From Candidatus Lustribacter sp. (GTDB lineage Bacteria; Vulcanimicrobiota; Vulcanimicrobiia; Vulcanimicrobiales; Vulcanimicrobiaceae), in contig OZ255842.1 in NCBI GenBank assembly GCA_965277805.1, positions 3,328,001 to 3,392,000 of the forward strand: DNA of 64,000 nucleotides, read 5' to 3'. The notes beneath the pieces are model-generated. The model had not been told where the DNA came from. It worked only from the letters and a program-made list of their open reading frames with translations, and did no database searches. Shown one piece after another: positions 12,983 through 41,243 of this stretch. The stretch's first letter is position 1. Each line of letters starts with the position of its first letter. Both the position numbers and the translations under genes were made by a program.

Positions 12983-13030
12983 TCTCGTCCAAGGTGCGCC
13001 CAATGCGCAGCCACAATTGCGCTCACTACG

Positions 13031-18649: not shown

Positions 18650-18822
18650 ACTTGCGCATGGTGCCTGATGCCCCGCCAAAACACCGACAGACAAGCAAGC
18701 AAACTTTACACAACCATTCCCCGAACGGGCCTTGCAATTTCGAAAATGTCCTGCACGCTTGCCTGCACGCTCGAATGGAGAATAAACAAACGAGCCCGGC
18801 CCGTCAATAGTCGCGCCGCGCG

Positions 18823-21556: not shown

Positions 21557-22383
21557 TCGCCGCACACTCGTTCCTGCCGCTGGTGTCGATCGTCGTTCCG
21601 ACGAAAGACCGGCCCGAAGAGATCGCGCGCATGCTCCGTTCGGTGCGTGCACAGCCGACCCGGCCCCTCGAAGTCATCGTGGTGGACCAATCGGCTCGCG
21701 CCTACGAACTCGAGCCGTTTCCGGAGCTTTTGCACGTGCACGACCCGCGAATCGGCGGCGCCTCGGCGGCACGCAATTACGGCATCGGGATCGCCGCCGG
21801 AGAAGTCATCCTATTTCTCGACGACGACGTCGTGCTCGAATCGGACTGCGTTGGCGAAATCGCGCGCGCGTTCGCGTCACGCCCCGAACTCGTGGGCGCC
21901 CAGTGCGCGATTCACAATCCGTGGGACGACGCGCCGCCCTCGCTCTACGACGTTTCGACGCGCATCTTCGAACACGGCTTCTTCGATTCGCGGCCGAAGA
22001 AGCGTCGCGGCGAGGCGATTCCGCGCTTGATCGACGGTTTGGCCTCGGCCTACCGCTACGATCTGCTGCGTTACGAAAACTTCGATGAAAACTTGCCGGG
22101 ATATAGCCTGGCCGAAGATTGGGATCTCACCAAGCGCGCGGCCCGTCACGGCGCGCTCACGATCGTGCCCGAGGCGCGCGTGCGCCACCTGCACTCATCC
22201 ACCAATCGCCACGATGCGACGGCCTACATGGCGCTGCGCCGCACCAACATTCTCTATCTCTACGAAAAACTCGAGGCGGCGCGCGACCTGCGCAACCGGT
22301 TCTGGAAACAGTGGTGGATCTTCGGCGAAACCTTGCGCGGGCTCAGGCTCGGGCGGAAGCGACGGCAACGTCGTCTTCGCTGA
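21553..22383 (+). CDS. Glycosyltransferase family 2
   Basis: VVPTKDR, VVDQS, ARNYG, FLDDD, FDENL..Y..AEDWD. Confidence 0.9.
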   Translation: MIAAHSFLPLVSIVVPTKDRPEEIARMLRSVRAQPTRPLEVIVVDQSARAYELEPFPELLHVHDPRIGGASAARNYGIGIAAGEVILFLDDDVVLESDCVGEIARAFASRPELVGAQCAIHNPWDDAPPSLYDVSTRIFEHGFFDSRPKKRRGEAIPRLIDGLASAYRYDLLRYENFDENLPGYSLAEDWDLTKRAARHGALTIVPEARVRHLHSSTNRHDATAYMALRRTNILYLYEKLEAARDLRNRFWKQWWIFGETLRGLRLGRKRRQRRLR

Positions 22384-24797: not shown

Positions 24798-25877
24798 ATG
24801 CGCACACTCCCGCGCCGTCTCCCCGTTAGTCTCGTGGTCCCGGCCTACAACAGCGAACGTTTCATTCGTGCCGCACTAGAGAGTGCCGCCGGACGGCAGT
24901 CGCATACGCCTTCCGAGATCATCGTGGTCGACGATGGATCAACCGATCGCACCGGCGATGTCGCTGCGGAATTCGGCGCACGCGTGATCCGTCTGCCCGC
25001 GAATTTCGGGCCCGCGGCAGCGCGCAACGCCGGCGCGATCGCCGCGCGCCAGCCGTGGCTCGCGTTTCTCGACGCCGATGACGTATGGCTCAACGGCAAA
25101 CTTGCGGCGCAGTGGGAAGCGATCGAGCGCTGGCCCGAAGCCGGTTTCTGTTTCACCGACTACGACGTGGTGAGCGCCGAAGGCGCGATATCGGCACACG
25201 AGATGACCAGCGACGGCGGTTACGCGTACGGCCAGGCAAGTGCGCGTTACGGGTGCGCGGTCCGCTTCGATTGCGGGGCCTTAGCCGAACCGCTGGCGCG
25301 CTCGATGTTCGTCCGTCAATCGTCGGTGCTCGTGCGGCGATCGCTCTTCATCACCAGCGGCGGCTACGACGAGCGCATGCGCCTTTCCGAGGACTACGAG
25401 TTCTTCTTGCGCCTGACCGGTCATGCGCCGGCCGTCTCGATCGAGCGCCCGCTCGTCATCTATCACCGGCGCGATAGCTCGCTATCGGTCGATCCGCTGG
25501 CCGAAGTCGCATCGATCGATCGCATGTGGGGATCGATCCTCGACCGCCCGGCCCGCTACCCGGCCGGGATCGCCCGCTTGATCGAAGCGCGGCGGCCGGC
25601 CATGCTGCAAAAAGGGTGCCGCATCGCGTTGCGTCTGGGCCGCTTTGACGCCGCGATCGGGTTCGCGCGAGCGGCGGCGGCCGTGCGGATTTCGCCGGCT
25701 GCCGTGCTTTTGCTCGCCCTCGCGCACGCGCTGAACAATGCGAGCGGACGGAGTTGCTTCCGCACCCTCAGGTCGCTCTGGCGCGCTCGTCCGGCGCGGC
25801 CGTCGTGCCTAGGACGGCTGCGGCACGTGGCGTCGCAGGCGGTGATAAAACAGCCGCACGTCGTCGGCCGTCACTAG
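24798..25877 (+). CDS. Glycosyltransferase family 2
   Basis: VVPAYN, VVDDGSTD, ARNAG, FLDADDVW, SEDYEF. Confidence 0.9.
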   Translation: MRTLPRRLPVSLVVPAYNSERFIRAALESAAGRQSHTPSEIIVVDDGSTDRTGDVAAEFGARVIRLPANFGPAAARNAGAIAARQPWLAFLDADDVWLNGKLAAQWEAIERWPEAGFCFTDYDVVSAEGAISAHEMTSDGGYAYGQASARYGCAVRFDCGALAEPLARSMFVRQSSVLVRRSLFITSGGYDERMRLSEDYEFFLRLTGHAPAVSIERPLVIYHRRDSSLSVDPLAEVASIDRMWGSILDRPARYPAGIARLIEARRPAMLQKGCRIALRLGRFDAAIGFARAAAAVRISPAAVLLLALAHALNNASGRSCFRTLRSLWRARPARPSCLGRLRHVASQAVIKQPHVVGRH

Positions 25878-27167
25878 CCACTGTTCGCGTAATCCGATTC
25901 CGGTCTTGCGCCGGAAGTACAGCGACTTGAACGCGACCACACCGACGTAGGTGACGGTCGTCGCCGCCGCGGCACCGTTCATCCCGAACCTCGGAAGCAA
26001 GAATAGCGTCAGCACCGCGCACAGCACCGCCGACGTTCCTTGAATCGCGAATATCAACAATGGCCGCCGTACTTGGACCAGGATGAAGTACCCGAGAAAC
26101 GTCTCGACGGCGTAGACCACGAGTCCCGGCAGGAGGATCCGCAAAACCGTTCCAGCACCGGCGAATGCGGCGCCGTACACGTGCACGATCAGCCACGGCC
26201 CGGCGACGAAGAGTACGACGCCGAGCCCTACCTGCAGCGCCACCATGCTGCGCATCAAGGCGGCAGTGAGCTTGGCCGCTTCAGCAAACGCATCGCCGGC
26301 AATATTTTCGAGCGCGGCCCAAATCACCGGCAAGCTGAGGCTCCACAGCAGCTCGCCGGTCGAAACGGCCAGGGTGTAGATGCCGAGCAACCGCGGTCCC
26401 AGCAGCGCGCTGATCAAGAACACATCGATGCGAAGATTGATGTAGCCGGCAACCGTTGCCAAGCTCGACCGGCTCCCGAAGTTCAGCTGCTCGCGAATCA
26501 GGAAGGCTAGCGAGTGTTCGTTCCGGCTCGGACCGGAGCGCGCGATGCGGCGCCGTAACACGAGCGCCGTGTAACCTGCAGCAGCGGCTTGCGCTACGAT
26601 CCAGAGCGCCAAGGCCTGATAGCTCGAGACGTGCCAGATCACCAGCGCGGCGATGACAACAGCGCTGAAAGCGACCGAGGTGATCGCCCCCTGCCAGGCA
26701 ACCGCCGCGGTCGCGCCCATGGCGAGCAGCAATCCGCGGCCACCCTGCGCGTAAAGCGCAAACGGAATTGCCAGCGCCGCGCCTAGCAACGGGCGCTGCG
26801 AGGGCGCGATGAGCCCAATTGCGAGCGCGACGAGCGCGCACGGGATTGCCGCCGCCGCGACGACGCCGATCGTCGCCGCGTAGATGCGCGCAATCGAGTC
26901 GGTTTTGCGGCCGGCTTGCATGAGGACCGCGCCGGTGATGCCGTCGGTACCGATCAGCACCATCGAAAGCGCGATGACGGCATACGCGAGCACGGCTTTG
27001 CCGTCGGGGCCGAGCGTGCGCGCCTGGGCTATGCCGGCGGCAATGCCCGCCAGTTGCCCGAGCACGCCGACCGAGAACAACCCGGCGATGCGCCGCAGCA
27101 GCGACCGCGACCGGGCGAGCCCGGCCGGCGCGGCCTGCGGCTCAGCGCTGGGGAGCGGGTCGCGCAA
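25809..27167 (-). CDS. Wzx-like oligosaccharide flippase 2
   Basis: ARTLGPDGK, NLRIDVFLIS...LGIYTLAVSTGELLW; paralog of 8875..10191. Confidence 0.88.
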   Translation of the reverse strand: MRDPLPSAEPQAAPAGLARSRSLLRRIAGLFSVGVLGQLAGIAAGIAQARTLGPDGKAVLAYAVIALSMVLIGTDGITGAVLMQAGRKTDSIARIYAATIGVVAAAAIPCALVALAIGLIAPSQRPLLGAALAIPFALYAQGGRGLLLAMGATAAVAWQGAITSVAFSAVVIAALVIWHVSSYQALALWIVAQAAAAGYTALVLRRRIARSGPSRNEHSLAFLIREQLNFGSRSSLATVAGYINLRIDVFLISALLGPRLLGIYTLAVSTGELLWSLSLPVIWAALENIAGDAFAEAAKLTAALMRSMVALQVGLGVVLFVAGPWLIVHVYGAAFAGAGTVLRILLPGLVVYAVETFLGYFILVQVRRPLLIFAIQGTSAVLCAVLTLFLLPRFGMNGAAAATTVTYVGVVAFKSLYFRRKTGIGLREQWLVTADDVRLFYHRLRRHVPQPS

Positions 27168-28065
27168 TGTGTCTGAACAGACGCAGCGTGTCCTCGACCA
27201 TGCCGCGCTTGTTGTGCCAGAGCCAGTGGCGCATCGCTATGTAGCACGCGATACGTTCGCGCTGGTCGAGCGAAGCGCGAGCGATCCCCGCGCAGAGCTC
27301 CCAGAACCAGCGAAAGTGCGGCGTCTGATTGATCAACTTTCCGCGGCTGTTCAGATCGAACCACGCGGCCCGGTCGTCGAGGGTCGGATTCGACAAGACG
27401 GAGCCGCCGGCGTGGTAACGCTCGAAGAACAGATACTCCGGGATCTCGACGATGCGTCCGCGCAATGCGATCTCTCCAAGCAAGATCATGTCGGCCGCGA
27501 TGTAGGCCCCGAGCAAATTCGTCTCGCGCAGCGCCGACGTACGGAACAGGCCGAACACCGGGTCGCACATCGACCCCTCGTCGCAGCGGTACGCATACTT
27601 CGCGAACCGCTGGCTCGGGCGCGGCTCGCCCAGTTCCAAGCTGTGTTCCCGGGTGTCGATTTGCCGGCCGTCGGCATCGATCATGATCATCCGCGGGTAA
27701 GCGAGCACCACGTCCGGCGCCGCATCGAGTACCTCGACGCACCGCTGGATATTCGTCGGCGCGAGCACGTCGTCGTGGGCCGCGTGCCGGAAATAGCGCC
27801 CGCGCGCGAGGTGAATAACGCGGTTGTAGTTTGCAGCGGCACCGAGATTCTGCTCGTTGCGAAAGTATTTGATGCGCGGATCGCTTTCCGCGTAGCGGCG
27901 GCAGATCGCTTCCGTCGCATCGGTCGATGCGTTGTCGGAGATGAGCAACTCGAAATCGCGGTACGTTTGATCCAAGATCGAACGCAGCGCCTCTTCGAGA
28001 TAGCGCGCTCCATTGTACACCGGCATCCCGATCGTGACGGCCGGATTGCGTACTTCGTCCGTCAT
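27142..28065 (-). CDS. Glycosyltransferase family 2
   Basis: GMPVYNG, ISDNASTD, NLGAAANYN, AAHDD. Confidence 0.92.
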   Translation of the reverse strand: MTDEVRNPAVTIGMPVYNGARYLEEALRSILDQTYRDFELLISDNASTDATEAICRRYAESDPRIKYFRNEQNLGAAANYNRVIHLARGRYFRHAAHDDVLAPTNIQRCVEVLDAAPDVVLAYPRMIMIDADGRQIDTREHSLELGEPRPSQRFAKYAYRCDEGSMCDPVFGLFRTSALRETNLLGAYIAADMILLGEIALRGRIVEIPEYLFFERYHAGGSVLSNPTLDDRAAWFDLNSRGKLINQTPHFRWFWELCAGIARASLDQRERIACYIAMRHWLWHNKRGMVEDTLRLFRHIARPAPQR

Positions 28066-28066
28066 C

Positions 28067-28984
28067 TTACGCCGGCTGGAAAATCAGGCCGTTGCGATCG
28101 GCCCGCGTTTGGCCATCGAAACGTGCGGCGATTTCATCCGGAACGCGCGCGCCGTCGCACAGGCGTTTGAAATCGCGCAGCGACGTGCCGGCGGGAGCCG
28201 AGTCGACGTTGGGTGCCCCGCGCCCGGCGATGACGTCTTCGATGTCGATCGTCCGGAAGTCGAAACTGTAGCGGGTGCGGCCGCTCGTGTTTGCGACCGT
28301 CGAGTGCATCTGCGCGCCCGAAAACGCAATCGCGCCCCCGGGCGGGAACACCAAGCGCACCTCGGGTTGCAATTCGAGTTCCTCCAGCGCGTGCGGCTGC
28401 CAGCGGGTGTCGCTCTTGACGTGCTGCGCGGCATTTTTCCGCTGATTGGTATTCCAATCATAGTAGTCGAAGAGGCGCGAGTCGTTGACGACGCCCCGCT
28501 CCCAATAACGCGGATGAAATGCCATCCCGCTCTCCGATGAGAATTCGTAGATCGGCATCCACCAGTTCACTTGCTGGAACGGCGACGACCACCACGTGTC
28601 GCGATGCGGATGGTGCGCGTAGGCGACGCCGGAGGTCAAATAGCCGTGCGAGGTCGAGATGCGCAGACGCGGGACGTCTAAATAGGTCGTCTCGGGATCG
28701 CAGCCGGACGCGGCAAGGCGGGCGGCAATCTCAGCCCACGACACGGGGTGATGGATGAACTCCGGCTTCACGCGGCCCAGGATGGCGGCGAACTCTTCGA
28801 CCGGCATGTGATGCTGCGCGAGGCACGGATCCACGTCCGGAAAGGCTTCCTCGAGCATGAGCCGGGCGTGCTTGACGATTTGGAGATCCGCATCGAAACG
28901 CGTGAGCAAGAACACGCGTCCCTCATAGATGCGGCGCCGGCGCTCGGCCTCGTCGAAGGAAGGATCGATCTCGATCGTGTTCAC
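28067..28984 (-). CDS. Putative Fe(II)/2-oxoglutarate dioxygenase-fold protein (PhyH-like)
   Basis: HxD (HRDTW), VNWWMPI, distal H (QMHST), RYSFDFR. Confidence 0.6.
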   Translation of the reverse strand: MNTIEIDPSFDEAERRRRIYEGRVFLLTRFDADLQIVKHARLMLEEAFPDVDPCLAQHHMPVEEFAAILGRVKPEFIHHPVSWAEIAARLAASGCDPETTYLDVPRLRISTSHGYLTSGVAYAHHPHRDTWWSSPFQQVNWWMPIYEFSSESGMAFHPRYWERGVVNDSRLFDYYDWNTNQRKNAAQHVKSDTRWQPHALEELELQPEVRLVFPPGGAIAFSGAQMHSTVANTSGRTRYSFDFRTIDIEDVIAGRGAPNVDSAPAGTSLRDFKRLCDGARVPDEIAARFDGQTRADRNGLIFQPA

Positions 28985-30192
28985 GCAATTGCTCCTAAGG
29001 GCGCATCGGCCGTGATGACCCGCGAATAGATCTCGAGCGACTCGAGCTTCTCGGCCACCTCGTTGCGGTAGATCGAGTTCATGACGATCACCTCATCGGG
29101 CGGCTCGTTGCGCAGCCGCTCGGGGGCCACGATTTCCTTACCGCTTCCGATGAGGAACTTACCGTGCCGGTAGGGGTTCACGTCGGTCACGTAGGCGATC
29201 TCGTCGTCGATTTTCAGCGTCGTCATGAACGCCACGCACTTGGAGCCGGAACCCCAGATGGCGATGCGCTTCCCGAGCCGGCCGGCGCGCTCGAAGTACT
29301 CGCTCCACGCCGCCACCGTTTCGCCCACGTTCCGCTCGAAGGTTTCGATGTCGCTTAGGATGTCGGCCGGCTGATCCAGCGTTAGGGAGTAACGCGGGCC
29401 GGGCCGTTCGGCCGTTTTTGCTTCCAGCATCAGGTACTGATCGTCGTATCCGACGCGAACGTCCGTGACGTCGAAGCGTTGCGCTTCGAATGCGCGGGCC
29501 AGCGAACCCGGCGTGAAGTAGCCGCAATGTTCGAAGTAGATGTCCCAGTATGCGGTGTCGCGCAGGATCCGGCGCATCTCGGGCAGCTCGAAAAATATCG
29601 GCGTGGGCCGGTTACCGACCGCGTCTCGAATCGTCCGCAAAAAGCCCGCGACATCGGGAATGTGCTCGAGTGCATGGCGGCAAGCGATGAAGTCCGCCGG
29701 AATCGAGGCGTGCTGCGGGCCGTAGAATTCGTTCAAGAAGGTGACGTTTTCGGCAGCGACGCCGGTGAGGCGCTCGTGAACCGACGTCGAGTCGATGCCG
29801 ATGCCGCGCACGCGGCCGAGTTCGGCCATGCGCGCGAGGAACGTCCCTTTGCCGCAACCGATTTCGACGACGAGCTTCCCGAACAGATCGTGGTCGGCGA
29901 GCAGGCGTTCGATCAGCGCGTCTTCGAATTCCGAGAAGGTGGCGGAAAACGTTTGGGTTTCCTCGTACGCCGGATCGTAGCGCAGGCGCTTGAGATCGAA
30001 GGCCGTGTTGGTGATGTAGCCGCACACGTCGCAGACGGCGATCCGCAGGTCGCCGCGCGGGAACGCCCGTCCGGCTTCGCGTGATTCCGTCACGAGACAG
30101 CTGTTCACCGGGATGTTGTCCACGCTGTAAAAAAGCTGGAGCGCCTCGCTCGCACAGCTCGGGCAGAAACCGCTAACCGGTCGCATGTTCAA
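28981..30192 (-). CDS. NDP-sugar C-methyltransferase family (Zn-binding N-terminus, class I SAM)
   Basis: CPSC...CDVC, EIGCGKG, HALEHI, DIYFEH, WGSGSK, DVNPYRHG. Confidence 0.88.
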   Translation of the reverse strand: MNMRPVSGFCPSCASEALQLFYSVDNIPVNSCLVTESREAGRAFPRGDLRIAVCDVCGYITNTAFDLKRLRYDPAYEETQTFSATFSEFEDALIERLLADHDLFGKLVVEIGCGKGTFLARMAELGRVRGIGIDSTSVHERLTGVAAENVTFLNEFYGPQHASIPADFIACRHALEHIPDVAGFLRTIRDAVGNRPTPIFFELPEMRRILRDTAYWDIYFEHCGYFTPGSLARAFEAQRFDVTDVRVGYDDQYLMLEAKTAERPGPRYSLTLDQPADILSDIETFERNVGETVAAWSEYFERAGRLGKRIAIWGSGSKCVAFMTTLKIDDEIAYVTDVNPYRHGKFLIGSGKEIVAPERLRNEPPDEVIVMNSIYRNEVAEKLESLEIYSRVITADAPLGAIA

Positions 30193-31465
30193 CGTCCTTT
30201 GGTTCGAAGCGAAGTTCGGGAATCGGGATTACGAACGTTCCGCCGCCGGCGCGATAAGCGGCCTGCTGCGTCATGATCTCCTCGGCGAAGTTCCAAGCGA
30301 GGATCAAGAGCACGTCGGGCGGATCCTTGAGAATTTCTGCCGGATCGACGATCGGAATGTGGCTACCGCCCATATAGCGGCCGATCTTGAACGGGTTGAG
30401 ATCCGCCACGTAGTCGACGAGGCTCGAGTCGATGCCGAAATAACTGAGGAGGGTGTTCGCCTTGGCGGCTGCACCGTAGGCCGCGATGCGCTTGCCGTCA
30501 GCCTTGAGCGTGCGCAGCGTCGTCATGACCCGCCCTTTGAGGGCGTCGATACGCTCTGCAAAGTCACGGTAGAAGGCGAAATCGAGCAGCCCCGTTTCCT
30601 GTTCGGCCGCCAGCAGTTCGCGCACGCTGTCTTCGACCGCTTTGAACGGCGAGACGAAGACGCGCAGCGATCCGCCGTGAATCCGCGTGCGCTCGACCCG
30701 GTTCAAGTACAAGCCGTGGCTGCGAAACAAACGGTCGAGCGAGGTAACCGAGAAATAACACAGATGCTGATGATAGATCGTGTCGAATTCGCGGTGTTCG
30801 ATCAGGTCGGCAACGTACGGACATTCGATGACGGCCGTCCCGGTCGGCGCGAGCAGCGTGACGATGCCGTCGACGAAGCCGTTCAGGTCGGCAACGTGAG
30901 CCAGAACGTTGTTGGCTAAGAACAGATCGGCGCTCAGCCCGGCACTGTTCAGTTCGCGCGCGAGCCGGGCGGTGAAGAAGTCGTTGATCGTCGGGATGCC
31001 CTGCGTGTTGGCGGAGCCGGCCGGGCCGTCGGCGGGATCGATGCCGAGAACCGGGATGTCGTGCTCTTGAAAAACGCGCAGCATATAGCCGTCGTTACTC
31101 GCGGCCTCGATGACCAGGCTCGTGGGGCCGAGGCGCTTGCGGGCAATCAAATCCTCCGCGCTGTCCGCGAAATGCTTCATCAACGAGGGCGAGACCGACG
31201 AGAAATACGGATACGAGCGGCAGAACAGAATGCTCGGATCGACGGTCTGAGCGATCTGCACGAGCGAGCACGCCGGGCAGAACAGCACGTCGAGAGGAAC
31301 GATGTGTTCGGGTTCGCCCAACTGCTCGGCCGTCGGAAGCGCGTCGGCGAGCGGCGTGGATCCGAGGGAGAGAACGGGCCGGAGCCCGCTCTCTCCGCAC
31401 GAACGGCAGGCGGTGATGTTCGTGTAGACTGCGGCGGTTTCGCCGGCGAGCTCAGCCTGCAGCAA
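30173..31465 (-). CDS. NDP-4-keto-6-deoxyhexose C3-methyltransferase-like (TylCIII/EryBIII family)
   Basis: CRSC...[47 protein letters not shown]. Confidence 0.92.
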
Positions 31466-32513
31466 CGGGCACCTCCGTTTGCGAACGCGCCGTCAGCCAG
31501 CGCAACCCTTCGTCGACGCGTCCGGAGTCGATCAGGCTTTGCAGCTTCGCGATCCGTTTGTAGCGCGGTCCTTCGAAGTCGTCGAGGGAAAGTCCGAGTT
31601 GCGTGTACGTCTTGTAGAGTTCGCGCGCGCCGCGGCGGGCATTCCAGATCATCGGTGTCTTGGGGAAGGTGCGCGCGTATTTATCGCAGTTGACGCGGTA
31701 CGTGCGCGAATCGGCGTTATTGCCGGCGGCGAACTCCACCCGCGAGCCGGGAACCGTATCCCGCACGATTTCGGCGAGATCGCGAACCAGGTAGTTGTCC
31801 TCGGTGCGGCCCACGTTGAAAACTTCGTTGTGGATCAAAGCGCGCGGCGCTTCGAGCACCGCTGCCATGGCCCGCGAGATGTCTTCGATGTGGACGATCG
31901 GACGCCACGCCATCCCGTCGCTTTTCATGTAGACGGTGCCTTGAGTGACCGCATACGCCACGAGGTTGTTCAACACCAAATCGAATCGCAAGCGGGGCGA
32001 CACGCCGAACGCGGTCGCATTGCGCATGAAGGTCGGCGAGAAACGGTCGTCCGCCAGTTTGGTGATATCCCGTTCGCTCCACACCTTCGAGGTGCCGTAC
32101 GGCGTAACCGGATTGAACGGCGCATCCTCGGCGAGGAAGCCGTCGCCGCCGGCGCCGTAATAACTGCACGACGAAGAGAAAATGAACCGCTCGACGCCCG
32201 CCTCTTTCGCGAGCTCCGCAATGCGAACCGACGCGCGGTGGTTGATCTCGTACGTCAGCTCGGGGTTCAGATCGCCGAGCGGATCGTTCGAAAGGCCGGC
32301 CAGATGAATGACCGCATCGTAACCGTCGAAGTCGGCGACGACGACGTCGCGAATATCTTTGCGGACGGCGGGAATTGCCGCCGGCTCGGGACCGTAGGTG
32401 CTCTCGGCGAAAAGTTCGCTGTCTAGCCCCGTGACGTCATGACCGCGCTCCGACAGTACCCGGCTCATGACTGTCCCAATATAGCCGGCGTGTCCGGTCA
32501 GTAGTACTCGCAT
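31452..32513 (-). CDS. NAD-dependent epimerase/dehydratase (SDR)
   Basis: [41 protein letters not shown]. Confidence 0.92.
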
Positions 32514-33321
32514 CTGATGGTTCCCGATCCTTTCGACGGTTTATTTTCCAGGGTGCGTTGCCGCTCTGCCAGAGCGTTTCGAGCAAAATTTTCTCGCGAA
32601 TGGTATCCATGCATTGCCAGAACGATTCGTGGCGATACGCCATGAGCTGGCCGGCGCGCGCGAGACGCTCCAGCGGTTCCTTTTCGAAATGCGTTGCGTC
32701 GCCGTCGATGTAGTCGAAGATCTCCGGTTCGAGGACGAAGAAGGCGCCGTTGATCCAGCCTTCCTGGGCCTGCGGTTTTTCCGAAAACTCGACGATCTGA
32801 TCGCCGGTGAGTTCGAGGTGGCCGAAGCGCGCCGGCGGACGGACGGCCGTCAACGTTGCGAGCTTGCCGTGTGAGCGGTGGAACGCGAGCAGTTCGTCGA
32901 GATCCACATCGGATACGCCGTCACCCCAGGTGAGCATGAACGTCGACGAGCCCAGATACGGTGCGAGCCGCTTGATGCGGCCGCCGGTCTGCGTTTGCAG
33001 CGCTGTATCGACGAGCCGGATGTTCCAGTCGACGGTTTGGCCTTTATGAACCTTCACGCGGCCGTCGGCAAGGCTCACCGAGAGGTCGTGCCCGAGCTCC
33101 GTTTGGTCGAGCACGTAACGTTTGATGACTTCGCCTTTGTAGCCGAGCGCGATAACGAAATCTTTATGATCGTAGGCGGCATAATGATTCATGATGTGCC
33201 ACATGATCGGAATGCCGCCGATCTCCACCATCGGCTTCGGTTTCGTTTCCGTCTCTTCAGCGAGGCGGGAACCGGTGCCGCCGGCAAGGATCGCGACCTT
33301 TAACGGCGGTGTTGCTGTCAT
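32437..33321 (-). CDS. rfbF: Glucose-1-phosphate cytidylyltransferase
   Basis: [49 protein letters not shown]. Confidence 0.93.
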
Positions 33322-33418: not shown

Positions 33419-34117
33419 TCAGGCGTCCCGGCGTGTTAGTCCAAAGGTCACCCACTCGTCGTCGACGTGCAATATCTCGCGCTCGCCGGCCGCGTCCGCG
33501 CCGGCCGAGCACGCGACCGTGAGAACGTGCCGCTCGTCGACGGACACGTTGCTGAACGTGAGCTCGCCGGGCGCGTTCGGCGCGCGCAACGCACCGCCGG
33601 CGTCGAATGCGAACGCCTGTGGTTGAAAATTCCGCGCGCGATCGAGCGCTTTGGCGGCGGCTTCTTTGCGCGTCCATAGCAACGTGAATGCACGCGCGCG
33701 CAGCGGCTGAGCTAGCGCGCGAATCGACGCCGCCTCAGCCGGCGTACAGCTGGCCTCGATCAGCGCCGCTTCCGGCTCGTGCTCCGGAATCGCTTCCGCA
33801 TCGATGCCGACCGGCCCAGCGCACACAACCGCACATGCCACCAGCGTACGCGCATGCGTCAAACTGAACGTGAGACTGCTTCCGGCGAGCACCGGGCGGC
33901 CGGTCTCCGTGCGCTCGAATCGCCAATCCGCCGGATGCCCGGTTCCGGCCCGGGAGAGCGCCATGCGAAGCACGCCGTGTGCGGTAACGTACGCATTGCG
34001 GTCGGACGCGAGCACCAATTCCGACGCCCGCCGCCGTTCGCAGTCGTCGAGCTGGTTTGCCAGAAGACGTAACGACCGATCGCTCAAATCGTCAGGGTGG
34101 GCCCAAGCAATCAGCAC
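33419..34117 (-). CDS. 4'-phosphopantetheinyl transferase (Sfp type)
   Basis: GRPVL, FSLTH, VGIDAE, WTRKEAAAKA; divergent from the NRPS. Confidence 0.9.
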   Translation of the reverse strand: MLIAWAHPDDLSDRSLRLLANQLDDCERRRASELVLASDRNAYVTAHGVLRMALSRAGTGHPADWRFERTETGRPVLAGSSLTFSLTHARTLVACAVVCAGPVGIDAEAIPEHEPEAALIEASCTPAEAASIRALAQPLRARAFTLLWTRKEAAAKALDRARNFQPQAFAFDAGGALRAPNAPGELTFSNVSVDERHVLTVACSAGADAAGEREILHVDDEWVTFGLTRRDA

Positions 34118-34198
34118 GCTGGTCTTTACCCAAACGTCCCGCTAGTGCCGTCCCCGGGGTCTCTCCGTCGCCGCTGCCCGTCGTGAGACAGTTTATGC

Positions 34199-37100
34199 AT
34201 GAGCTCACCCGCTCGCCTGCCGAGTGCCGGCGCCGAACCTGCAGCCTACCCGCTTTCGGCCGTCCAGGAAGGGATGCTCTTCGATAGCCTCCGCGGCGAT
34301 TGCTCCGGACGCGGCATCGAGGTGCTCGTGCTCGAGCTTCACGGCACGCTGGACGCGCAACGGCTGGAGACGGCCTGGCAACGCGTGTCCGCGCGCCACG
34401 ACGCGTTGCGCACGTCGTTCTCGCTCACGGCGGATCGCCCGCTGCAGCACGTCCGGGGCTTCGCCGATCTGCCGTTCACGGTCGAGGACGTCGCGCTCAG
34501 CGGTCCCGACGAACGTGACTGGTACGTTCGCGCATGCGTTCAAACGGAGCGCCGCCGCGGCTTCGCGCTGGACGAGCCGCCGCTGCAACGCGTGCGGCTC
34601 ATTCGCTTCGGAGAGAACGCGCAGGTCCTCATCTGGACGAATCACCACGCGATCATGGACGGGCGCTCGCGCCGCATCGTGTTGCGCGAGATCGTCGACG
34701 CCTACTCGAACCTCACGCCGCTGCGGCCGGCGACCCCATACCGCCGTCATATCGCGTGGCTCGAAGAGCAGCGGTTCGCCGCTTCCGACGCGTTCTGGCG
34801 CGAACGCTTGCGCGGCTTTGCGGCGCCGACCCCACTGCCGGCGGCCTTCCATGCGTTGCCGGAGAGCACCGGCCTGCCCGAATCGGTCGAGCGCACCTTG
34901 ACCGGCAGCGAGGCCCAACGCGTGCTCGATTTTGCTCGCGCGCAGAACCTCACCGTGGGCCTACTGGTGCAGGCGGGCTGGTCGCTCGTGCTCGCCCGCC
35001 ACGCCGCCACGGCCGACGTCGTTTTCGGCACCGTCCGCGCGGGCCGGCACGCGAGTGACGGGGCCGATGCGGTCGGCTTGCTAATCGCGACGCCGCCGCT
35101 GCGCGTCAACGTGGATGAACGCGCGCCGCTCGTGCCCTGGCTACGCGAGGTGCGCGCGCGCTGGGACGAGCTTCGCGACCACGAGCACGTTCCGTTGCGC
35201 TCGATCGCCGCGAGCAGCGAGATTCCGGCCCCGCAACGGCTCTTCGAGACGCTGGTCGTCTACGAGCGTGAGACGTTCATGCGCGCGGTTGCGGATGACG
35301 TCGACCCGGAAGGCCTGCTCGGCATTCAACGTGCGTCTCTTTATGAGAATACCGGCTTCCCGCTCAGCCTGCACGCGGCCGGTACCACCGAACTGCAGAT
35401 GCGTCTGCAATACGATACGGCCCGGTTCGGCCCAAGCGATGCGGCCCGCCTGATCGACGAAGTGGTCACGATCGTCCGCGCATTTCCCGAACATGCCGGC
35501 GGCTCCGTCGCCGATGTGCCGTCGCTGACGCCCGCCGAGAGCGCGCGCCTCATCACGCAGTGGAACCGCGTGACGCCCTACCCGCATGAGGCATCGGCTC
35601 ACGAACTCTTCCACGCACAGGCCCTGCGCACGCCCACGGCGATTGCGCTCCAGCTCGGTACGGCCACGATGACCTACCGCGAGCTGGACCGCCAAAGCGG
35701 AACGATCGCCGCGCAGTTGCGCGCGCGCGGAATCGGGCGCGGCGACTTCGTCGCACTGCATGCCGAGCGCTCGTTCGAGATGGTGACCGGCTTGCTGGGC
35801 ATCCTCAAAGCCGGCGCGGCCTCGATTCCACTCGACATGCACTACCCGCCCGACCGTCTCGCGACGGTCCTGCGCGACGGCGCCGTCCGCATCATCCTCG
35901 TGCAGGCACCGCTGTTCGATGAGCTGCGTCCGGTCCTCGAGCTCCTCGGATCGGACGCGCCGGAGATGCTCGACATCGCCCCGCTTGCCGGCGCGTCGTG
36001 TCCGCCGTTCCACGCCGCGTACACCGGCGCGCTCGAACCGGCGCACGTGATGTATACGTCCGGTTCGACCGGCGCTCCGAAGTGCGCCGTGATACCGCAT
36101 CAAGCGATCGTCCGTACCGTCTGCGGCACCGATTATCTGCGCTTCGCCGCCGGCGAAACGTTCTTCGCTTTCGTGCCGCTGACGTTCGACGTCGCGATCC
36201 TCGAGATCTGGGGGCCCTTGCTCCATGGCGCGCGGCTCGTGCTGTGTCCGCCGGGCTTGCCGTCGCTCGACGTACTGGCGAGCACGATCGAGGCGCAAGG
36301 CGTTACGACCCTGTGGCTGACGACCGCGCTCTTCGAACAGGTCGTCGAGGAAGCGCTCTCGCACTTGGGCGGGCTGCGGCAATTGATCGTCGGCGGCGAC
36401 GTGATGTCGCCCGCGCATGCGCGCCGTATCATGACCGCGTTCCCCGCGCTTCAGCTCGTCAACGTTTACGGTCCGACCGAAGCGACCGTCCTGATCACCG
36501 CGCACCCGCTCGCGTCGCCGCCCAACGCACCCATTCCGCTCGGCGCACCGATCCCCAACGCAACGGTCTACATCCTCGATGCGAAGCAGCGGCCGGTTCC
36601 GGTCGGCGTGCCCGGTGAAATCTACACCGGCGGCGCCGGCGTCGCTCTGGGCTATCTCGGGCGGCCCGATCTGACGGCCGAACGGTTCGTTCCCGATCCG
36701 TTCTCGACGCAGCCGGACGCAACGATGTACCGCAGCGGCGATCTCGCGCGTTGGCGCGACGACGGCACGATCGATTTTCTCGGCCGCGTCGACTCGCAAG
36801 TGAAGATTCGCGGCGTTCGCATCGAACTCGGGGCGATCGAGTCGGCCCTCACCGATCATCCGCTGATTGCTGAAGCGGTGGTCGTCGCGCGGGGATCCGG
36901 CGCCGCCGGTAAGCAGCTGGCAGCCTATGTCGTTCGCCGGGCCGCGACGCTGGACGCGCGCGAGGTCAAGGCGTTTCTTGCAACGCGTCTCGCCGCACCG
37001 AGCATCCCATCCACCGTCGCCTTCGTGCCCACGATCCCGCGCACGGCGACGGGGAAGTTCGACCGCAAAGCGCTGCCCGATCCGGCTGCATTCGCCGGCG

Positions 37101-38116
37101 ATGACGAACCCGTCGCGCGGCGGCAAGCGGAAACGCCGCTGGAGATCGCGCTGGCCGGCGAAGTGGCGTCAGTTCTCGGCCTCGACGATGTCGGTCTCGA
37201 TGATGACTTCTACGCCTGCGGCGGCGACTCGCTGCGCGCGATGCGGCTCGTCGCGCGCCTGCGGGAGATATTCGGCCCGCAACTGACGGTGCAAGATCTG
37301 ATTGCAGCTCCCACGGTCGCCGCGCTCAGCCGCGTTGCCGGCGAGCTGCGTCACGACGCCCGGGCGCTACGCCCGCAGCGGCTACGTGCCGAGCGCGCCA
37401 CCGGCTCGCTGGCCCCTGTCTTTTTCTTGCACGGCGATCTCATCGGCGGCGGCCGGTATTGCGCGGAGGTTGCCCGGCGCGTTTCACCCGGCCGGCCGTT
37501 CTTCTCCCTCTCGCCGCACGGCACCGAGGGCGATGACTTCCCCGGCTCGATCGAGTCGATGGCCCGCGAAAACTGCGCCGCGATTCGCGAGCGCTATCCG
37601 CATGGCCCGGTGATTCTCGGCGGCTACTGCAACGGCGGCCTCGTGGCCTACGAAATGGCGCGCCAACTCGAACGCGCCGGCGTTACCGTCGCCGGGCTCG
37701 CGATCGTCGACGGCTTCATCTTCAACACCGAACGCTCGGCGCTCTCGGACTTCATGCGCCGCCAAGCGCGCCGTCATCTCCAACGCTTGGGGCTCGGCCG
37801 CGCGGTGGTACCGCCGGACGCAGAGCTCGCGAGCTGGCAAGTGCGGCACGAGAGCCTGGTGGAATCATGGTACGACGCGATGGCGCGTTATGTGCCGGCC
37901 CGCTACTCGGGGCGCACGACGCTGTTGTGGACCGGCGAAATGGCAGCGCGTTCCGAAGGTCTGACGCGCACCTGGAAACGCGTCGCGCCCAACGCCGTCG
38001 AGGGCGGCATCATTCCGGGCACGCACTTGACCGCGATCACGCGCCACCTCAACGAAACGAGCGCTATCCTTGCGGAAGCGCTCGAAGGCCGATTCGCCGC
38101 CGCCGCGGGCGGCTAG
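34199..38116 (+). CDS. Single-module NRPS, C-A-PCP-TE
   Basis: C: HHAIMDG. A: YTSGSTG.PK, YGPTE, YRSGDL, GRVDSQVKIRG.RIELG.IE, GKFDRKAL. PCP: GGDSL. TE: GGYCNGG...GTH. Confidence 0.95.
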   Translation: MSSPARLPSAGAEPAAYPLSAVQEGMLFDSLRGDCSGRGIEVLVLELHGTLDAQRLETAWQRVSARHDALRTSFSLTADRPLQHVRGFADLPFTVEDVALSGPDERDWYVRACVQTERRRGFALDEPPLQRVRLIRFGENAQVLIWTNHHAIMDGRSRRIVLREIVDAYSNLTPLRPATPYRRHIAWLEEQRFAASDAFWRERLRGFAAPTPLPAAFHALPESTGLPESVERTLTGSEAQRVLDFARAQNLTVGLLVQAGWSLVLARHAATADVVFGTVRAGRHASDGADAVGLLIATPPLRVNVDERAPLVPWLREVRARWDELRDHEHVPLRSIAASSEIPAPQRLFETLVVYERETFMRAVADDVDPEGLLGIQRASLYENTGFPLSLHAAGTTELQMRLQYDTARFGPSDAARLIDEVVTIVRAFPEHAGGSVADVPSLTPAESARLITQWNRVTPYPHEASAHELFHAQALRTPTAIALQLGTATMTYRELDRQSGTIAAQLRARGIGRGDFVALHAERSFEMVTGLLGILKAGAASIPLDMHYPPDRLATVLRDGAVRIILVQAPLFDELRPVLELLGSDAPEMLDIAPLAGASCPPFHAAYTGALEPAHVMYTSGSTGAPKCAVIPHQAIVRTVCGTDYLRFAAGETFFAFVPLTFDVAILEIWGPLLHGARLVLCPPGLPSLDVLASTIEAQGVTTLWLTTALFEQVVEEALSHLGGLRQLIVGGDVMSPAHARRIMTAFPALQLVNVYGPTEATVLITAHPLASPPNAPIPLGAPIPNATVYILDAKQRPVPVGVPGEIYTGGAGVALGYLGRPDLTAERFVPDPFSTQPDATMYRSGDLARWRDDGTIDFLGRVDSQVKIRGVRIELGAIESALTDHPLIAEAVVVARGSGAAGKQLAAYVVRRAATLDAREVKAFLATRLAAPSIPSTVAFVPTIPRTATGKFDRKALPDPAAFAGDDEPVARRQAETPLEIALAGEVASVLGLDDVGLDDDFYACGGDSLRAMRLVARLREIFGPQLTVQDLIAAPTVAALSRVAGELRHDARALRPQRLRAERATGSLAPVFFLHGDLIGGGRYCAEVARRVSPGRPFFSLSPHGTEGDDFPGSIESMARENCAAIRERYPHGPVILGGYCNGGLVAYEMARQLERAGVTVAGLAIVDGFIFNTERSALSDFMRRQARRHLQRLGLGRAVVPPDAELASWQVRHESLVESWYDAMARYVPARYSGRTTLLWTGEMAARSEGLTRTWKRVAPNAVEGGIIPGTHLTAITRHLNETSAILAEALEGRFAAAAGG

Positions 38117-39021
38117 AAGCCGATGAACCGGCCGAGGAGTCCGAAGATGTTGCTCGTCACGGCGGAACCGCCTTTGCGAGCAGCCGGTACGTAAACGACG
38201 TCGTTCTTCTGCAACGTCAGATCGGAGGCGATGTCTCCCTTTTGCAATTCGTTGTAGAGGTTGACCGTGTACACTTTCGTCTGGCCGCCGCCGAGATCGC
38301 GCGTGACGCGGATTGCGTTGAGGTCGGCATTCGAGTTCGCGGAATTGCCGGCTTTTGCAATCGCCGTCGATAACCGGTCACCTTCGCTGATCGAGACCTC
38401 GCCGGGTTTGTCGACGGCGCCCACGACTTCGACGTTGAAGGTTACCGGGCTCGGAACGTAGACAACCGAGTCGTTCGAGAGCACGGCGTCGGCACTCGTG
38501 TTGCCGCGGCGAAGGATGTCTTGCAGCGACGCATCGCGGACGCCCGAGACATCGCTGATGCGCGCCACCGGGTAGTCGCCGTTGGTCGGCCCCATGCCGC
38601 CGGCGGTCGCAATCGCATCGGTGACGTGACTGTTGAAGGGCAGCGTGTATTTTCCGGGCGTCTTGACGTTCCCGAGGACCATCACCGTGAGTTGCCCTTC
38701 GCTCACCACGCCGACCGACACGATCGGGGCACGCAGAAATTTCGAGAGCGCACGCGTCAGCGTCGCCGAGGCCTCGGCCGGCGTTTCGCTGCCGAGCGAG
38801 ATGCGCCCGATCATCGGATATTGCACCGTCGAGTCCGGCAGCACGGTAACGGTTTGGGTCAAGGTCGGCTCGCCGTAAACCGAGACGGCCAATTGATCGC
38901 CCGCATGGATATGGTAGTCGGCAGCGGTGGGCGCTCCCGTCGCGGCGAGCAACGGCACGGCCAGTACCGCCTGAAGCGCGAACGTGAAAGCAAAGGCCGC
39001 ACCGGCCCGCGTCGTGTTCAT
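38113..39021 (-). CDS. Polysaccharide export protein (Wza/OPX: Poly_export + SLBB)
   Basis: YHIHAGDQLAVSVYG, YPMIG, VLGNVKTPG, NDVVYVP; amphipathic C-terminal helix. Confidence 0.9.
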   Translation of the reverse strand: MNTTRAGAAFAFTFALQAVLAVPLLAATGAPTAADYHIHAGDQLAVSVYGEPTLTQTVTVLPDSTVQYPMIGRISLGSETPAEASATLTRALSKFLRAPIVSVGVVSEGQLTVMVLGNVKTPGKYTLPFNSHVTDAIATAGGMGPTNGDYPVARISDVSGVRDASLQDILRRGNTSADAVLSNDSVVYVPSPVTFNVEVVGAVDKPGEVSISEGDRLSTAIAKAGNSANSNADLNAIRVTRDLGGGQTKVYTVNLYNELQKGDIASDLTLQKNDVVYVPAARKGGSAVTSNIFGLLGRFIGF

Positions 39022-41243
39022 CCGAGACTCCGATCCGCATCCGCATCGGATGCAAGCGCAGGACGCAGTGCCGCTCCGGCAACGAAAAAGTAGTCTTCGT
39101 CGACGAGCGAACGCTGCGGCTTCACCCGGTTCGCGACCGTACCGATCACGTTCGCGACCCCCATGTTGTGTAGTTTCGCAAGCGAACGGCGGACGTCGTG
39201 CGAATCGGTCGAGTCGATCGAAAGGACCAGCACCGTTCCGTCGGCCTTGGCCGCCAGGATCGCCGCGTCGACGACCGGCATGAGCGCGGGCGCATCGATG
39301 ATAACGGTCTGATACGTCTCCAGCAGCTCTTCGAGCAATTCGTCGAACCGCCGCGACTGAATCAGCTTGACGGAGTTCGGCGTACGCGTACCGCTCGTGA
39401 GCAGATCTAGGCCTTCGTGCTCCGTGGCCATGACAACGTCGCGCAACTCGGCCGTGCCGACGAGAACGTCGCTCAGACCCCGGCCGAGTTCCTGGTTGAG
39501 CTTATCGTGGAGCGAAGGGCGGCGCAGGTCGGCGTCGATCAGCAACACGCGCGGTTCGACGTGTGCCATCGTTATGGCGGTGTTCAGCGCGACCGTCGAC
39601 TTTCCATCACCCTGAGAGGGGCTCGTGACCGTGATGCAACGCATGCGCTTATCGGCCGTTGCGCTGTAACGAAGTGACGTTACGAGTTGGAGGAACGACT
39701 CGATTGCAAACGAGCGCAGCCACGGCTCGTCGGTATCGTCGGCGGCGGAAGGCGCGGGCGGCAGTTTCCCGGAGTTCGGGAGCCGCTGCAGCGCGCCGAG
39801 TTGCGGTACCGACGCGAGCACCGGCAATTCGAGTTCGTCCTCGATTTGGCTTTCGTCACGGATGCGCCGATCGAACATAAACACGAGCAGCGTCACGATA
39901 ATGCCCAAAACCAGACTCGAAAACGCTCCTAGCACGATGTTCAGCTTGAGATCGGGACGCTGCGACGCGTCGTTTGCGGAGGCGGGCGAGGTGACGGTAA
40001 CGTCACTCAATGCGGTGGCCTTGCCGATATTCGCATCGTTTAATTTCTGGCGCAAGGCAGTGACCACATCTTCGGCAAGTTTAGCGTCACGCTGCAGCCC
40101 CAGCAGGCTTGTTGCCTTACCAGGCAACGATGCGAGCTGCGGTCGCATGTCCCCGCGCTGCCGATTCAGTTGCGCCATCTGCGCCGAGTCCGAGGCAATT
40201 TGCGCGCGCAGAGCAGCGGCTTGCTGGGTGAGTTGAACGTACAGCGGATTCGGCATCGTTTCCGCCTGGGCCACGATCGTCGCCGGCGACTGGGCAATCT
40301 CGTGCTGCAGTTCCGCCTGCTGGCGTTTGAGGCCGATCACGGTCGGATGCTGGTCGGTGTACTGTTGTTCGGCTACTTGAAGTTGCACCTTCGCTTGGGC
40401 GAGTTGCTGCTGCAGCTGACTCAGGACGGGGTTAGGCTGGACCTCCGTTTGGCCGGCGACCGTGGGGCCGATGTGGTTGAGTTGCGCGGTGATACTCGCC
40501 AGCTGAGCCGTCGCTTGACCGCGATCGACCTCGGTCGCGTTGATTTTTGCTTCCAGCCCGGCCGCGGCGTTCATGACATTCTGCGTTTGCGTCTGCAGGT
40601 CGGCCATGTTGTTTTTCGCTTGGAACGCGGTGAGCGCCGCATCAGCCACGGCGGCTTTGCGCTGCGCCGCCGGAAGCTGAGCCGACAGTGTCTTGACGGC
40701 GTCGTCTGCTTGTTGTCCGACGAGCGATCGTTCGTGATCGACGAACGCCCCGGCGAACGCGTTGGCAACCGTCGCCGACATCTCGGGACTCGACCACGTC
40801 ACCGCCAGGTCCAGGATGTTGGTATTGACGACGCTCTGGACTTTCACGTGCGAGAGCAGTGCCCCGGGCGACATCGGTAGCTTCAGCTCGTCGATGACGG
40901 CGTTGGCGACCGGATTTTCCTGGAACAATTCGGCGTACGTTTCGGAAGACTGTACTCCCGTCGCCGCGAGCAGCGCGTTCAAAAGCGGCAGCGTAGTATT
41001 CCCGCTCTCGGCACCCGGAGTGGTGACCGGTCCACCGCTGCCCGCAATCAGCTTCACGTGCGTCGTGTAGCTCCGCGGCATGAACATCGTATACGCAGCG
41101 ATGAGCAAGAACGAACCGGCGGCGACACACGCAAAGATCCGCTTGCGCCGGAGGAGAGCTTGCCACAAACGCGTCCACTCAAATTCAGGCGCCGCCTCCG
41201 CTTGGGCCGGTCGCGGGGCTTGCCCGGATGCGAGTTGATACAT
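39018..41243 (-). CDS. Polysaccharide co-polymerase / BY-kinase (Wzc-like)
   Basis: Two TMs around a coiled-coil; Walker A SPSQGDGKST, LIDADLRRP, IIDAP. Confidence 0.92.
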   Translation of the reverse strand: MYQLASGQAPRPAQAEAAPEFEWTRLWQALLRRKRIFACVAAGSFLLIAAYTMFMPRSYTTHVKLIAGSGGPVTTPGAESGNTTLPLLNALLAATGVQSSETYAELFQENPVANAVIDELKLPMSPGALLSHVKVQSVVNTNILDLAVTWSSPEMSATVANAFAGAFVDHERSLVGQQADDAVKTLSAQLPAAQRKAAVADAALTAFQAKNNMADLQTQTQNVMNAAAGLEAKINATEVDRGQATAQLASITAQLNHIGPTVAGQTEVQPNPVLSQLQQQLAQAKVQLQVAEQQYTDQHPTVIGLKRQQAELQHEIAQSPATIVAQAETMPNPLYVQLTQQAAALRAQIASDSAQMAQLNRQRGDMRPQLASLPGKATSLLGLQRDAKLAEDVVTALRQKLNDANIGKATALSDVTVTSPASANDASQRPDLKLNIVLGAFSSLVLGIIVTLLVFMFDRRIRDESQIEDELELPVLASVPQLGALQRLPNSGKLPPAPSAADDTDEPWLRSFAIESFLQLVTSLRYSATADKRMRCITVTSPSQGDGKSTVALNTAITMAHVEPRVLLIDADLRRPSLHDKLNQELGRGLSDVLVGTAELRDVVMATEHEGLDLLTSGTRTPNSVKLIQSRRFDELLEELLETYQTVIIDAPALMPVVDAAILAAKADGTVLVLSIDSTDSHDVRRSLAKLHNMGVANVIGTVANRVKPQRSLVDEDYFFVAGAALRPALASDADADRSLG

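Follow-up and report, generated by a model that had tools for sequence, protein, structure and literature searches.

A stretch of 64,000 nucleotides from Candidatus Lustribacter sp. (contig OZ255842.1, positions 3,328,001 to 3,392,000; this whole stretch is hereafter the window) carries a gene for a single-module nonribosomal peptide synthetase (NRPS) and, divergent from it, a gene for an Sfp-type 4'-phosphopantetheinyl transferase (PPTase), both inside an exopolysaccharide (EPS) locus. We found that the two genes form a real, conserved and EPS-linked cassette. We propose, with confidence that is about evenly balanced, that the fused module serves as an EPS tailoring transferase, in which an arginine-rich starter condensation (C) domain derived from the DCL class would acylate an amino acid and the thioesterase (TE) would load the product onto a lipid-linked repeat unit.

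An earlier inspection of the letters without database searches (the sequence-only reading) had described an NRPS of C, adenylation (A), peptidyl carrier protein (PCP) and TE domains beside a divergent Sfp-type PPTase, and Pfam and NCBIfam domains together with the motifs bore this out. The Pfam domains Condensation (residues 16–451), AMP-binding (471–820, with its C-terminal part at 880–953), PP-binding (985–1045) and Thioesterase (1099–1285) all exceeded their cut-offs. The catalytic motifs were intact, namely HHAIMDG in the C domain, GGDSL in the PCP and GGYCNGG in the TE, the last accompanied by Asp1171 and His1276. His149, His150, Asp154, Ser1011, Cys1144, Asp1171 and His1276 were invariant in all 31 rows of the family alignment. 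Judged by the ratio of nonsynonymous to synonymous substitutions (dN/dS) against the nearest relative, the metagenome-assembled genome G003, the NRPS is under purifying selection (0.17 for C, 0.23 for A and 0.13 for PCP-TE; 0.03–0.27 for neighboring genes). AlphaFold models, used to confirm folds only, reached pLDDT values of 89.0 for the C domain and 82.1 for PCP-TE. A short-read contig of 5521 bp spanned positions 32917–38437 with 0 differences; it probably comes from the source sample and thus supports the assembly only.

The two genes are separated by 81 nt, and a promoter scan of 33200–34400 detected no sigma-70 site. At the other end, the NRPS stop codon (38114–38116, + strand) overlaps that of wza (38113–38115, − strand) within a shared CTAG, as the earlier reading had noticed. 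Its remaining observations also stood, with two minor qualifiers: in the database the PPTase gene is called at 198 amino acids, while homologues cover the full 232, and the window contains a Vgb-lyase-family propeller. The latter (56578–58254, − strand) is fused to a carboxypeptidase-regulatory-like domain, and a Vgb-family gene is also present in the NRPS cluster of G005, a one-contig genome of the same genus. The absence of another NRPS module from the window extended to the whole source genome (5.53 Mb, one contig, four carrier domains), where the only condensation domain is that of the window NRPS. This genome holds two ACPS-family genes. A tblastn search with the window PPTase recovered only itself, the second gene being presumably AcpS, and the window PPTase is the only Sfp-type PPTase found in the genome.

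Full-length C-A-PCP-TE homologues numbered 30 (1274–1341 amino acids, 47–80% identity) among the best 120 of 3141 matches, which also included two partial homologues, one of them labelled Ca. Lustribacter. No orthologue outside its own genome was found among the 401 phylum genomes sampled, and plasmid searches returned none, every match there being below 60% identity. G003, a Candidatus Eremiobacteraeota genome, is syntenic and ~94% identical; its NRPS is broken by frameshifts, as are several neighboring genes, and these are probably sequencing indels. The closest outside relatives of the NRPS parts are multi-module lines of the same and neighboring phyla, and from the sequences we infer that the enzyme resembles the first C domain and the Val-type last A-T-TE unit (T, thiolation domain) of such lines fused into one module. 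This apparent ancestry, which includes Cys-type TE ends, and the rarity of the cassette (2 of 348 family genomes; the genome tallies include G352 and G431, on which no claim depends) would suit a passenger, that is, a collapsed multi-module remnant that hitch-hikes in a variable EPS island without any functional link. We consider this very improbable and already largely refuted, as the gene is intact, its dN/dS is 0.13–0.23, its new specificity code is invariant, and the NRPS has been kept while its sequence diverged by ~50% and the locus was rearranged repeatedly.

A family-specific pattern search retrieved one genome record and six metagenome loci, the latter examined over 5–20 kb each, with two of the six contigs only 5–6 kb long. 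All six, whose NRPSs are 50–54% identical to that of the window and 52–83% to each other, lay in the same type of EPS locus. Loci L038, L039 and L042 contain a priming glycosyltransferase (GT), wzx, wzy, further GTs and wza, and L038 and L039 also wzc; L041 has wzy and GTs, while the two short contigs (L037 and L040) show wza and a gene for a Cys-rich protein. Gene order has been rearranged in no fewer than four ways, yet the NRPS remains within the locus, and so does the PPTase even where the two are apart. Thus, among the loci retrieved, homologues do not lie mostly outside glycan loci, a finding that G003 shares and that agrees with the sequence-only reading. In L037, L038 and L040, the NRPS is directly upstream of and co-oriented with wza (a few nucleotides apart in L038), whereas in L039 and L042 it comes after the GT2 gene GT2c, with a polysaccharide pyruvyl transferase gene between them and adjoining the NRPS. 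In L038, L040 and L041 the PPTase and the NRPS diverge, and in L039 and L042 the PPTase has been relocated away; in L039, L041 and L042 it stands just upstream of the GT4b-GT4a pair in the same orientation. It accompanies the NRPS in five of the six loci, the sixth contig terminating inside the NRPS. Trees of the NRPS and of the EPS genes have the pairs (L039, L042) and (L037, L040) in common and are otherwise poorly resolved.

The window locus is of the Wzx/Wzy-dependent type, with a priming transferase, GTs, Wzx, Wzy, Wza and Wzc. Its inventory comprises the priming transferase, two wzx, one wzy, several GT2 and GT4 genes, wzc, two wza, two acyltransferase-3 genes and a run of rfbF, short-chain dehydrogenase/reductase (SDR) and C-methyltransferase genes. 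G005 contains the same core EPS locus and the whole rfbF run, with the NRPS and PPTase absent and all of its C domains located at 0.96–0.99 Mb. G051, also one contig, has a related EPS locus, and no C domain was found in it. With two complete genomes lacking it, the NRPS-PPTase pair is an accessory cassette of the EPS locus of these soil bacteria. The tree of GT2c splits NRPS-bearing from NRPS-lacking loci (98/97). In G051, a RuBisCO large-subunit gene (L059:409-1905) adjoins the NRPS-lacking locus.

The sequence-only reading had also tied the cassette to the rfbF-SDR-methyltransferase-GT-wzx run and to sugars linked to cytidine diphosphate (CDP). The arrangement itself was confirmed, the PPTase being upstream of and co-oriented with the run and the rfbF ATG (33321) lying 97 nt past the PPTase stop. 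The link did not hold: within the 5–20 kb covered, rfbF was found in 0 of 6 metagenome loci, and the G005 run occurs without the NRPS. Thus, the NRPS and the CDP-sugar cassette are independent add-ons, and an rfbF-dependent CDP-sugar acceptor is rejected. The run is a probable CDP-linked branched-sugar cassette common to G005.

As a background control, we searched 13 other Eremiobacterota NRPS loci with the window genes by tblastn; this first control, which was insensitive, found the Wzx/Wzy/Wza core in 0 of 13. A Pfam search for wza and a fuller fetch placed 3 of the 13 (G021, G229 and G024, from three genera) in another EPS locus, a figure that is a lower bound because the verdict on the other ten came from the position of wza and from the insensitive tblastn. 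All three EPS loci have a priming GT and UDP-glucose dehydrogenase, with WecG and wza in G021 and G229, wzx in G021 and wzy in G024. Their assembly lines consist of A-T, a polyketide synthase (PKS)-NRPS hybrid of ketosynthase (KS), acyltransferase (AT) and acyl carrier protein (ACP) domains, KS-AT-ACP(-aminotransferase)-C-A(Gly-type)-T, and then a C-A-T-TE, C-T-TE or separate TE end. The C domains are of the ordinary DGW type, and the TEs score 110–114 bits on the window-TE profile. Thus, the family is found in EPS loci in 7 of 7 cases (the window and six), and the background is 3 of 13 or more, a comparison to which no p-value is attached because kin loci are not independent. As a hybrid PKS-NRPS occurs in another EPS locus in these three cases, the pairing of assembly lines with EPS recurs in the phylum, and the hybrids are candidates for a lipopeptide anchor or decoration of EPS. 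The lines (G021:C5:55600-98300, with L086, L112 and L113; G229:C3:1414600-1446000, with L088, L089 and L114; G024:C155:5400-35500, with L092 and L093) end in a TE that belongs to the Cys clade, and some also have a PPTase and a type II TE.

The best solved-structure matches of the window C domain are DCL domains (McyB, E 8e-69; PvdL C3, BacC, TycB and SrfA-C), which places it in the DCL clade. It departs from canonical DCL elongation domains in the residue after HHxxxDG, which is Arg in 28 of 31 family rows and Trp in 24 of 24 DCL rows. The clade carrying HHxxxDG-R and FGxxRxxR separates from DGW-type DCL domains at 97/96 (SH-aLRT 99 in another tree). R156 is present in 28/31 family, 13/15 clade and 0/24 DCL rows, and R280 in 31/31, 15/15 and 0/24, respectively. 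Further family-specific arginines are R158 (28/31), R334 (28/31) and R357 (29/31), where canonical DCL domains mostly have L, V and N, respectively. In a search of representative proteins, dominated by giant NRPSs and used as an outgroup set only, the DGR motif appeared in 8 of 1061 C-family domains (237 large proteins); seven of these were high-scoring, 6/7 of them N-terminal. A viral collection gave no match to the motif.

Several features suggest that this domain starts the chain. It is the first domain of the first module in a cluster without a donor carrier; neither an epimerization (E) domain nor an upstream module precedes it, and it is the sole C-family domain in the genome. Wherever context was available, a DGR C domain opens its line (G184, G244 and twice on plasmid 2 of Gemmatirosa kalamazoonensis). 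Because the clade is found almost only at chain starts, the arginine-rich C domain is probably a DCL-derived starter with acyl-coenzyme A (CoA) as donor, and an upstream module would therefore not be needed. The N-acyl-aminoacyl product put forward by the sequence-only reading fits such a domain. By its offset from HHxxxDG, R158 aligns with R148 of RzmA, which restricts the donor to acetyl; Arg at this position corresponds to C2, Met to C6 and Ala to C8 (PMC7804268). Thus, a short or carboxylated acyl donor is expected, with the arginines presumably placed in the tunnel. The starters RzmA, HolA and CdaPS1 share with the window C domain the chain-start position without an upstream module and the Arg at RzmA position 148. 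They differ in that the window domain groups with DCL domains (McyB, PvdL C3, TycB and SrfA-C), and no RzmA-type starter was listed among its 44 PDB matches.

The arginines also raised the idea of a ureido-forming C domain, for which a literature search returned nothing. The same arginines allow another assignment, in which the C domain rather than the TE faces the glycan. R156, R158, R280, R334 and R357 would bind an anionic sugar substrate (a uronate-bearing repeat unit, a nucleotide sugar or a lipid-pyrophosphate-sugar); the amino acid would be passed to the sugar, or a sugar-derived acyl group condensed onto the amino acid, with the TE editing or releasing. In its favor, the arginines at 158, 334 and 357 are family-specific, both Gemmatirosa DGR domains are directly behind glycosyltransferase genes, and the C domain of streptothricin ORF18 links an amino sugar to a beta-lysyl chain bound to a PCP (PMC11546977). 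We nevertheless regard this assignment as improbable. The clade acts at chain starts in lines without detected glycan genes, R156 and R280 could be explained by CoA binding, and neither a sugar aminotransferase nor a UDP-glucose dehydrogenase was present among the 57 window proteins scanned. ORF18 (PCP-C) is comparable as a component of an NRPS by which a chain of amino acids is attached to a sugar; it differs in that it belongs to an antibiotic pathway, has the motif HQxxxDM, and uses a free amino-sugar acceptor and stand-alone A domains.

The DGR clade had looked glycan-specific from the Gemmatirosa loci, an idea weakened by G184 and G244, near whose lines no glycan genes were detected within 40–60 kb. 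Gemmatirosa kalamazoonensis is cultured, and its plasmid 2 (NZ_CP007130.1, ~592000–647000; L063, L061 and L062) bears two DGR-containing NRPS systems. One is a multi-module line with a DGR starter C domain and a Cys-TE, situated behind a GT4 gene and near TauD, a second GT4 and an ATP-binding cassette transporter ATPase. The other is a single-module C(DGR)-A-T-TE(Ser) behind a GT2 gene, facing sulfotransferase and acyltransferase-3/SGNH genes; Pro replaces its first His, and its carrier motif is GGHSL. The neighborhood also holds genes for carbamoyltransferase and for the supply of 3'-phosphoadenosine-5'-phosphosulfate. Multi-module lines in Eremiobacterota are found at G184:C51:263000-301000 (L076, L077 and L080), G005:C1:960000-995000 and G244:C27:7400-20400; the G184 line opens with a C-A-T-E-C-T gene behind TauD, a layout it shares with the first gene of the Gemmatirosa line. 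P0343 (1397 amino acids, JGI) is a further single-module C(DGR)-A-T-TE; its TE is of the Cys clade, and it falls outside the window NRPS family.

The specificity code of the A domain, DVLWIGVVLK, was mapped through an alignment with LgrA, a procedure that gives familiar codes on other A domains, and is identical in 29 of 31 family rows. The nearest outside A domains (45–48% identity) have DAFWLGGTFK or DALWLGGTFK, which we take to be Val codes, and the pocket is altered relative to them at positions 236, 322, 330 and 331. The code thus appears to be derived from the Val clade, and our best guess for the substrate is a small aliphatic alpha-amino acid.

The TE has its best solved-structure match in AB3403, likewise a Cys enzyme. 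In ObiF and SulM the catalytic Asp is shifted to position II and in AB3403 it is kept at position I (PMC11298585, PMC6668435); all 31 rows of the window family combine Cys with Asp1171 at position I, unlike the ring-forming TEs. The Cys nucleophile is shared with the ObiF1 and SulM TEs (beta-lactone and monobactam), and the Cys-Asn of SulM is present in 30/31 family rows; the window A code, however, points to neither a beta-hydroxy nor a beta-amino residue. The GxCxG motif that the sequence-only reading had named is no evidence for transfer. Among the 105 nearest outside TEs, Cys was found in 105/105 and Cys-Asn in 90/105, and in G005, G184 and Gemmatirosa the clade also terminates peptide lines of the ordinary kind. 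Thus, Cys is uninformative on the acceptor and is rejected as a sign of transfer or ring formation. The lid residues W1213, H1217 and W1224 are family-specific and, speculatively, may form an acceptor site.

A TE of this kind could also end the pathway by hydrolysis, giving a free N-acyl amino acid (a signal, surfactant or small molecule of the matrix) whose genes would sit in the EPS locus through co-regulation with the matrix. We hold this, the strongest alternative, to be possible but rather unlikely. Released lipo-amino acids are ordinarily made by a starter C domain combined with a TE, the Cys-TE clade terminates normal peptide lines, AB3403 combines the same architecture with a Cys-TE having Asp at position I, and the locus has its own LuxR-type regulators. 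Against a free product, only the PPTase travels with the cassette, with no dedicated exporter or second tailoring gene, the NRPS and PPTase lie inside glycan operons in several arrangements, and R158 would predict a very short acyl chain and hence a poor surfactant.

AB3403 from Acinetobacter baumannii (PDB entries 4ZXH, 4ZXI) has the same single-module C-A-PCP-TE architecture. It differs in that its donor comes from a free-standing A domain and carrier (PMC10510592), while the window locus has neither; no such donor was seen in the window or the six metagenome loci, so that the arrangement is not that of an AB3403/EntF-type terminal module. The window C domain is DCL-derived, with a weak score against the AB3403 C domain (E 1e-7), and the EPS-locus context differs too. 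Transfer of an assembly-line product to a sugar by a TE has a parallel in Pks13, which off-loads mycolate onto trehalose (PMC12933137); that enzyme, however, is a PKS whose acyl chain is long and whose acceptor is a free disaccharide, and its match to the window TE is weak (E about 4e-4).

Envelope polymers are aminoacylated by the Dlt (DltA/DltC), Vibrio AlmEFG and WbqC-type O-antigen systems, in which the ligase, the carrier and the transferase (an MBOAT, an acyltransferase or WbqC) are each free-standing. To our knowledge, carrier-based aminoacylation of such polymers is known only with free-standing parts. The window system resembles them in that adenylation and a phosphopantetheinyl carrier would bring an amino acid to a surface glycan or glycolipid, and it differs in fusing the ligase, carrier, presumed N-acyltransferase and presumed transferase in one polypeptide. 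The NRPS scored 216.7 bits against the DltA model TIGR01734, below the cut-off of 559.85, and no MBOAT or carrier gene was a conserved neighbor of the NRPS in the metagenome loci. The source genome (G000) also contains, at G000:C1:1619700-1627500 (L109:7707-15488), a WbqC-like protein, a free 99-residue carrier, a hexapeptide acyltransferase, an AMP ligase, a GT-like protein and a methyltransferase, which looks like a free-standing carrier-based glycan aminoacylation set. Supply of a D-aminoacyl donor in trans by this set is not favored because it has its own WbqC-like and acetyltransferase genes and sits 1.7 Mb away. A stand-alone A-PCP-TE gene with GFCSG (G000:C1:212264-214819; L032:8265-10820), whose aligned A code lacks the conserved Asp, would rely on the window PPTase or AcpS for priming; its relatives occur in G003, G005 and G006.

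We return to the tailoring transferase. The PPTase would prime Ser1011, in line with established NRPS chemistry and the intact motifs, and the A domain would load a small aliphatic amino acid of the Val, Ala or 2-aminobutyrate type, as its code suggests. The chain-start C domain would then use a soluble acyl-CoA that is short or anionic, for example acetyl- or succinyl-CoA, to N-acylate this amino acid. In the least certain step, the Cys thioesterase would move the N-acyl-aminoacyl group to a hydroxyl of the undecaprenyl-pyrophosphate-linked repeat unit in the cytoplasm, ahead of Wzx flipping. An O-ester is favored over an amide because no sugar aminotransferase was detected among the window proteins scanned. 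In other EPS loci, the decorating slot is filled by acetyl-, succinyl- and pyruvyl-transferases. That the module makes a short-acyl aliphatic amino acid, that its TE esterifies the repeat unit and that the pair is an optional tailoring cassette of a single Wzx/Wzy pathway in Eremiobacterota is a scheme we judge to stand near an even chance.

The scheme draws on the constancy of the EPS type in 6/6 metagenome loci despite reshuffled orders, on the pyruvyl transferase gene adjoining the NRPS in L039 and L042, and on the Gemmatirosa glycan locus in which a GT2 gene is followed by a second single-module NRPS of the same C clade. The NRPS runs into wza in three loci and the PPTase heads GT4b-GT4a in three; the NRPS and EPS trees share pairs, and the residues invariant in 31/31 rows and the apparent purifying selection point the same way, as do a genome without any other C domain and a C clade placed at chain starts. 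Other observations weigh against it. G005 and G051 have the EPS locus but not the cassette, other NRPS loci of the phylum supply a background (at least 3/13), the arginine-rich C clade is not glycan-specific (the lines in G184 and G244), and the Cys-TE appears generic, also ending ordinary peptide lines. AB3403, the closest solved architecture, comes from a pathway with a free-standing donor and no defined product (PMC10510592). Context is known for just 4 of the 30 listed homologues and two further members, leaving 26/30 without it, and the loci are kin rather than independent draws, two of them on contigs of 5–6 kb. Transfer to the glycan, as opposed to release, is an inference.

Coordinates of the cassette, its domains and the surrounding EPS genes in the window
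Feature	Coordinates	Strand	Basis or remark
Priming polyprenyl glycosylphosphotransferase	7382..8875	+	EPS core
wzx1 flippase	8719..10191	+	True start probably near 8875; common to NRPS-bearing loci
Cys-rich protein, probably secreted	10191..11462	+	Without Pfam or NCBIfam match
Wzy/O-antigen-ligase-like polymerase	11510..13003	-	Core
GT2 (GT2a)	13870..14862	-	Core
Paralogue of the Cys-rich protein	17366..18694	-	
GT2 (GT2c)	21553..22383	+	Core
GT4b-GT4a pair	22343..24686	-	Core
rfbF-SDR-two C-methyltransferases-dioxygenase-like-GT2-wzx2 run	25809..33321	-	Dioxygenase-like: weak PhyH match
Sfp/HetI-type 4'-phosphopantetheinyl transferase	33419..34117	-	ACPS E 2e-14; best NCBIfam match HetI/Sfp type
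Single-module NRPS, C-A-PCP-TE, 1305 aa	34199..38116	+	Profile matches, family alignment
Condensation domain, DCL-derived Arg-rich chain-start clade	34244..35551	+	HHxxxDG-R; FGxxRxxR
Adenylation domain, code DVLWIGVVLK	35609..37057	+	Positions via LgrA alignment
Peptidyl carrier domain, Ser1011 invariant	37151..37333	+	Pfam, family alignment
Thioesterase, Cys1144-Asp1171-His1276	37406..38083	+	Asp at position I
wza, export protein	38113..39021	-	
wzc, chain-length regulator/tyrosine kinase	39018..41243	-	EPS core

The Cys-rich protein occurs in one or two copies per examined locus of this EPS type, whether the NRPS is present or absent. Elsewhere in the window (18873–21556, 43982–45634 and 48334–52347) are several PMT_2 (GT-C) membrane glycosyltransferase and polyprenol-phosphate GT2 genes, of which those at 49411 and 50944–52347 look like paralogues; the stretch in which they lie has two matches in G003.

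The role usually assigned to NRPS thioesterases is the release of small molecules. A literature search, with most subscription journals outside its reach, found neither this NRPS family nor the DGR clade described, and no account of an NRPS that modifies an EPS repeat unit. If the tailoring reading is true, NRPS chemistry would gain a new output and EPS a new class of substituent, and regions annotated as "NRPS + saccharide" in genome mining would sometimes be one pathway rather than two neighbors. The system is small, with two genes and one 140-kDa enzyme, and G005 and G051 offer natural comparators without the cassette. On the same reading, assembly-line enzymes would have been taken into Wzx/Wzy EPS loci of Eremiobacterota on two occasions or more, once as this NRPS family and once as the hybrid PKS-NRPS of G021, G229 and G024, which would point to a class of peptide-decorated exopolysaccharides.

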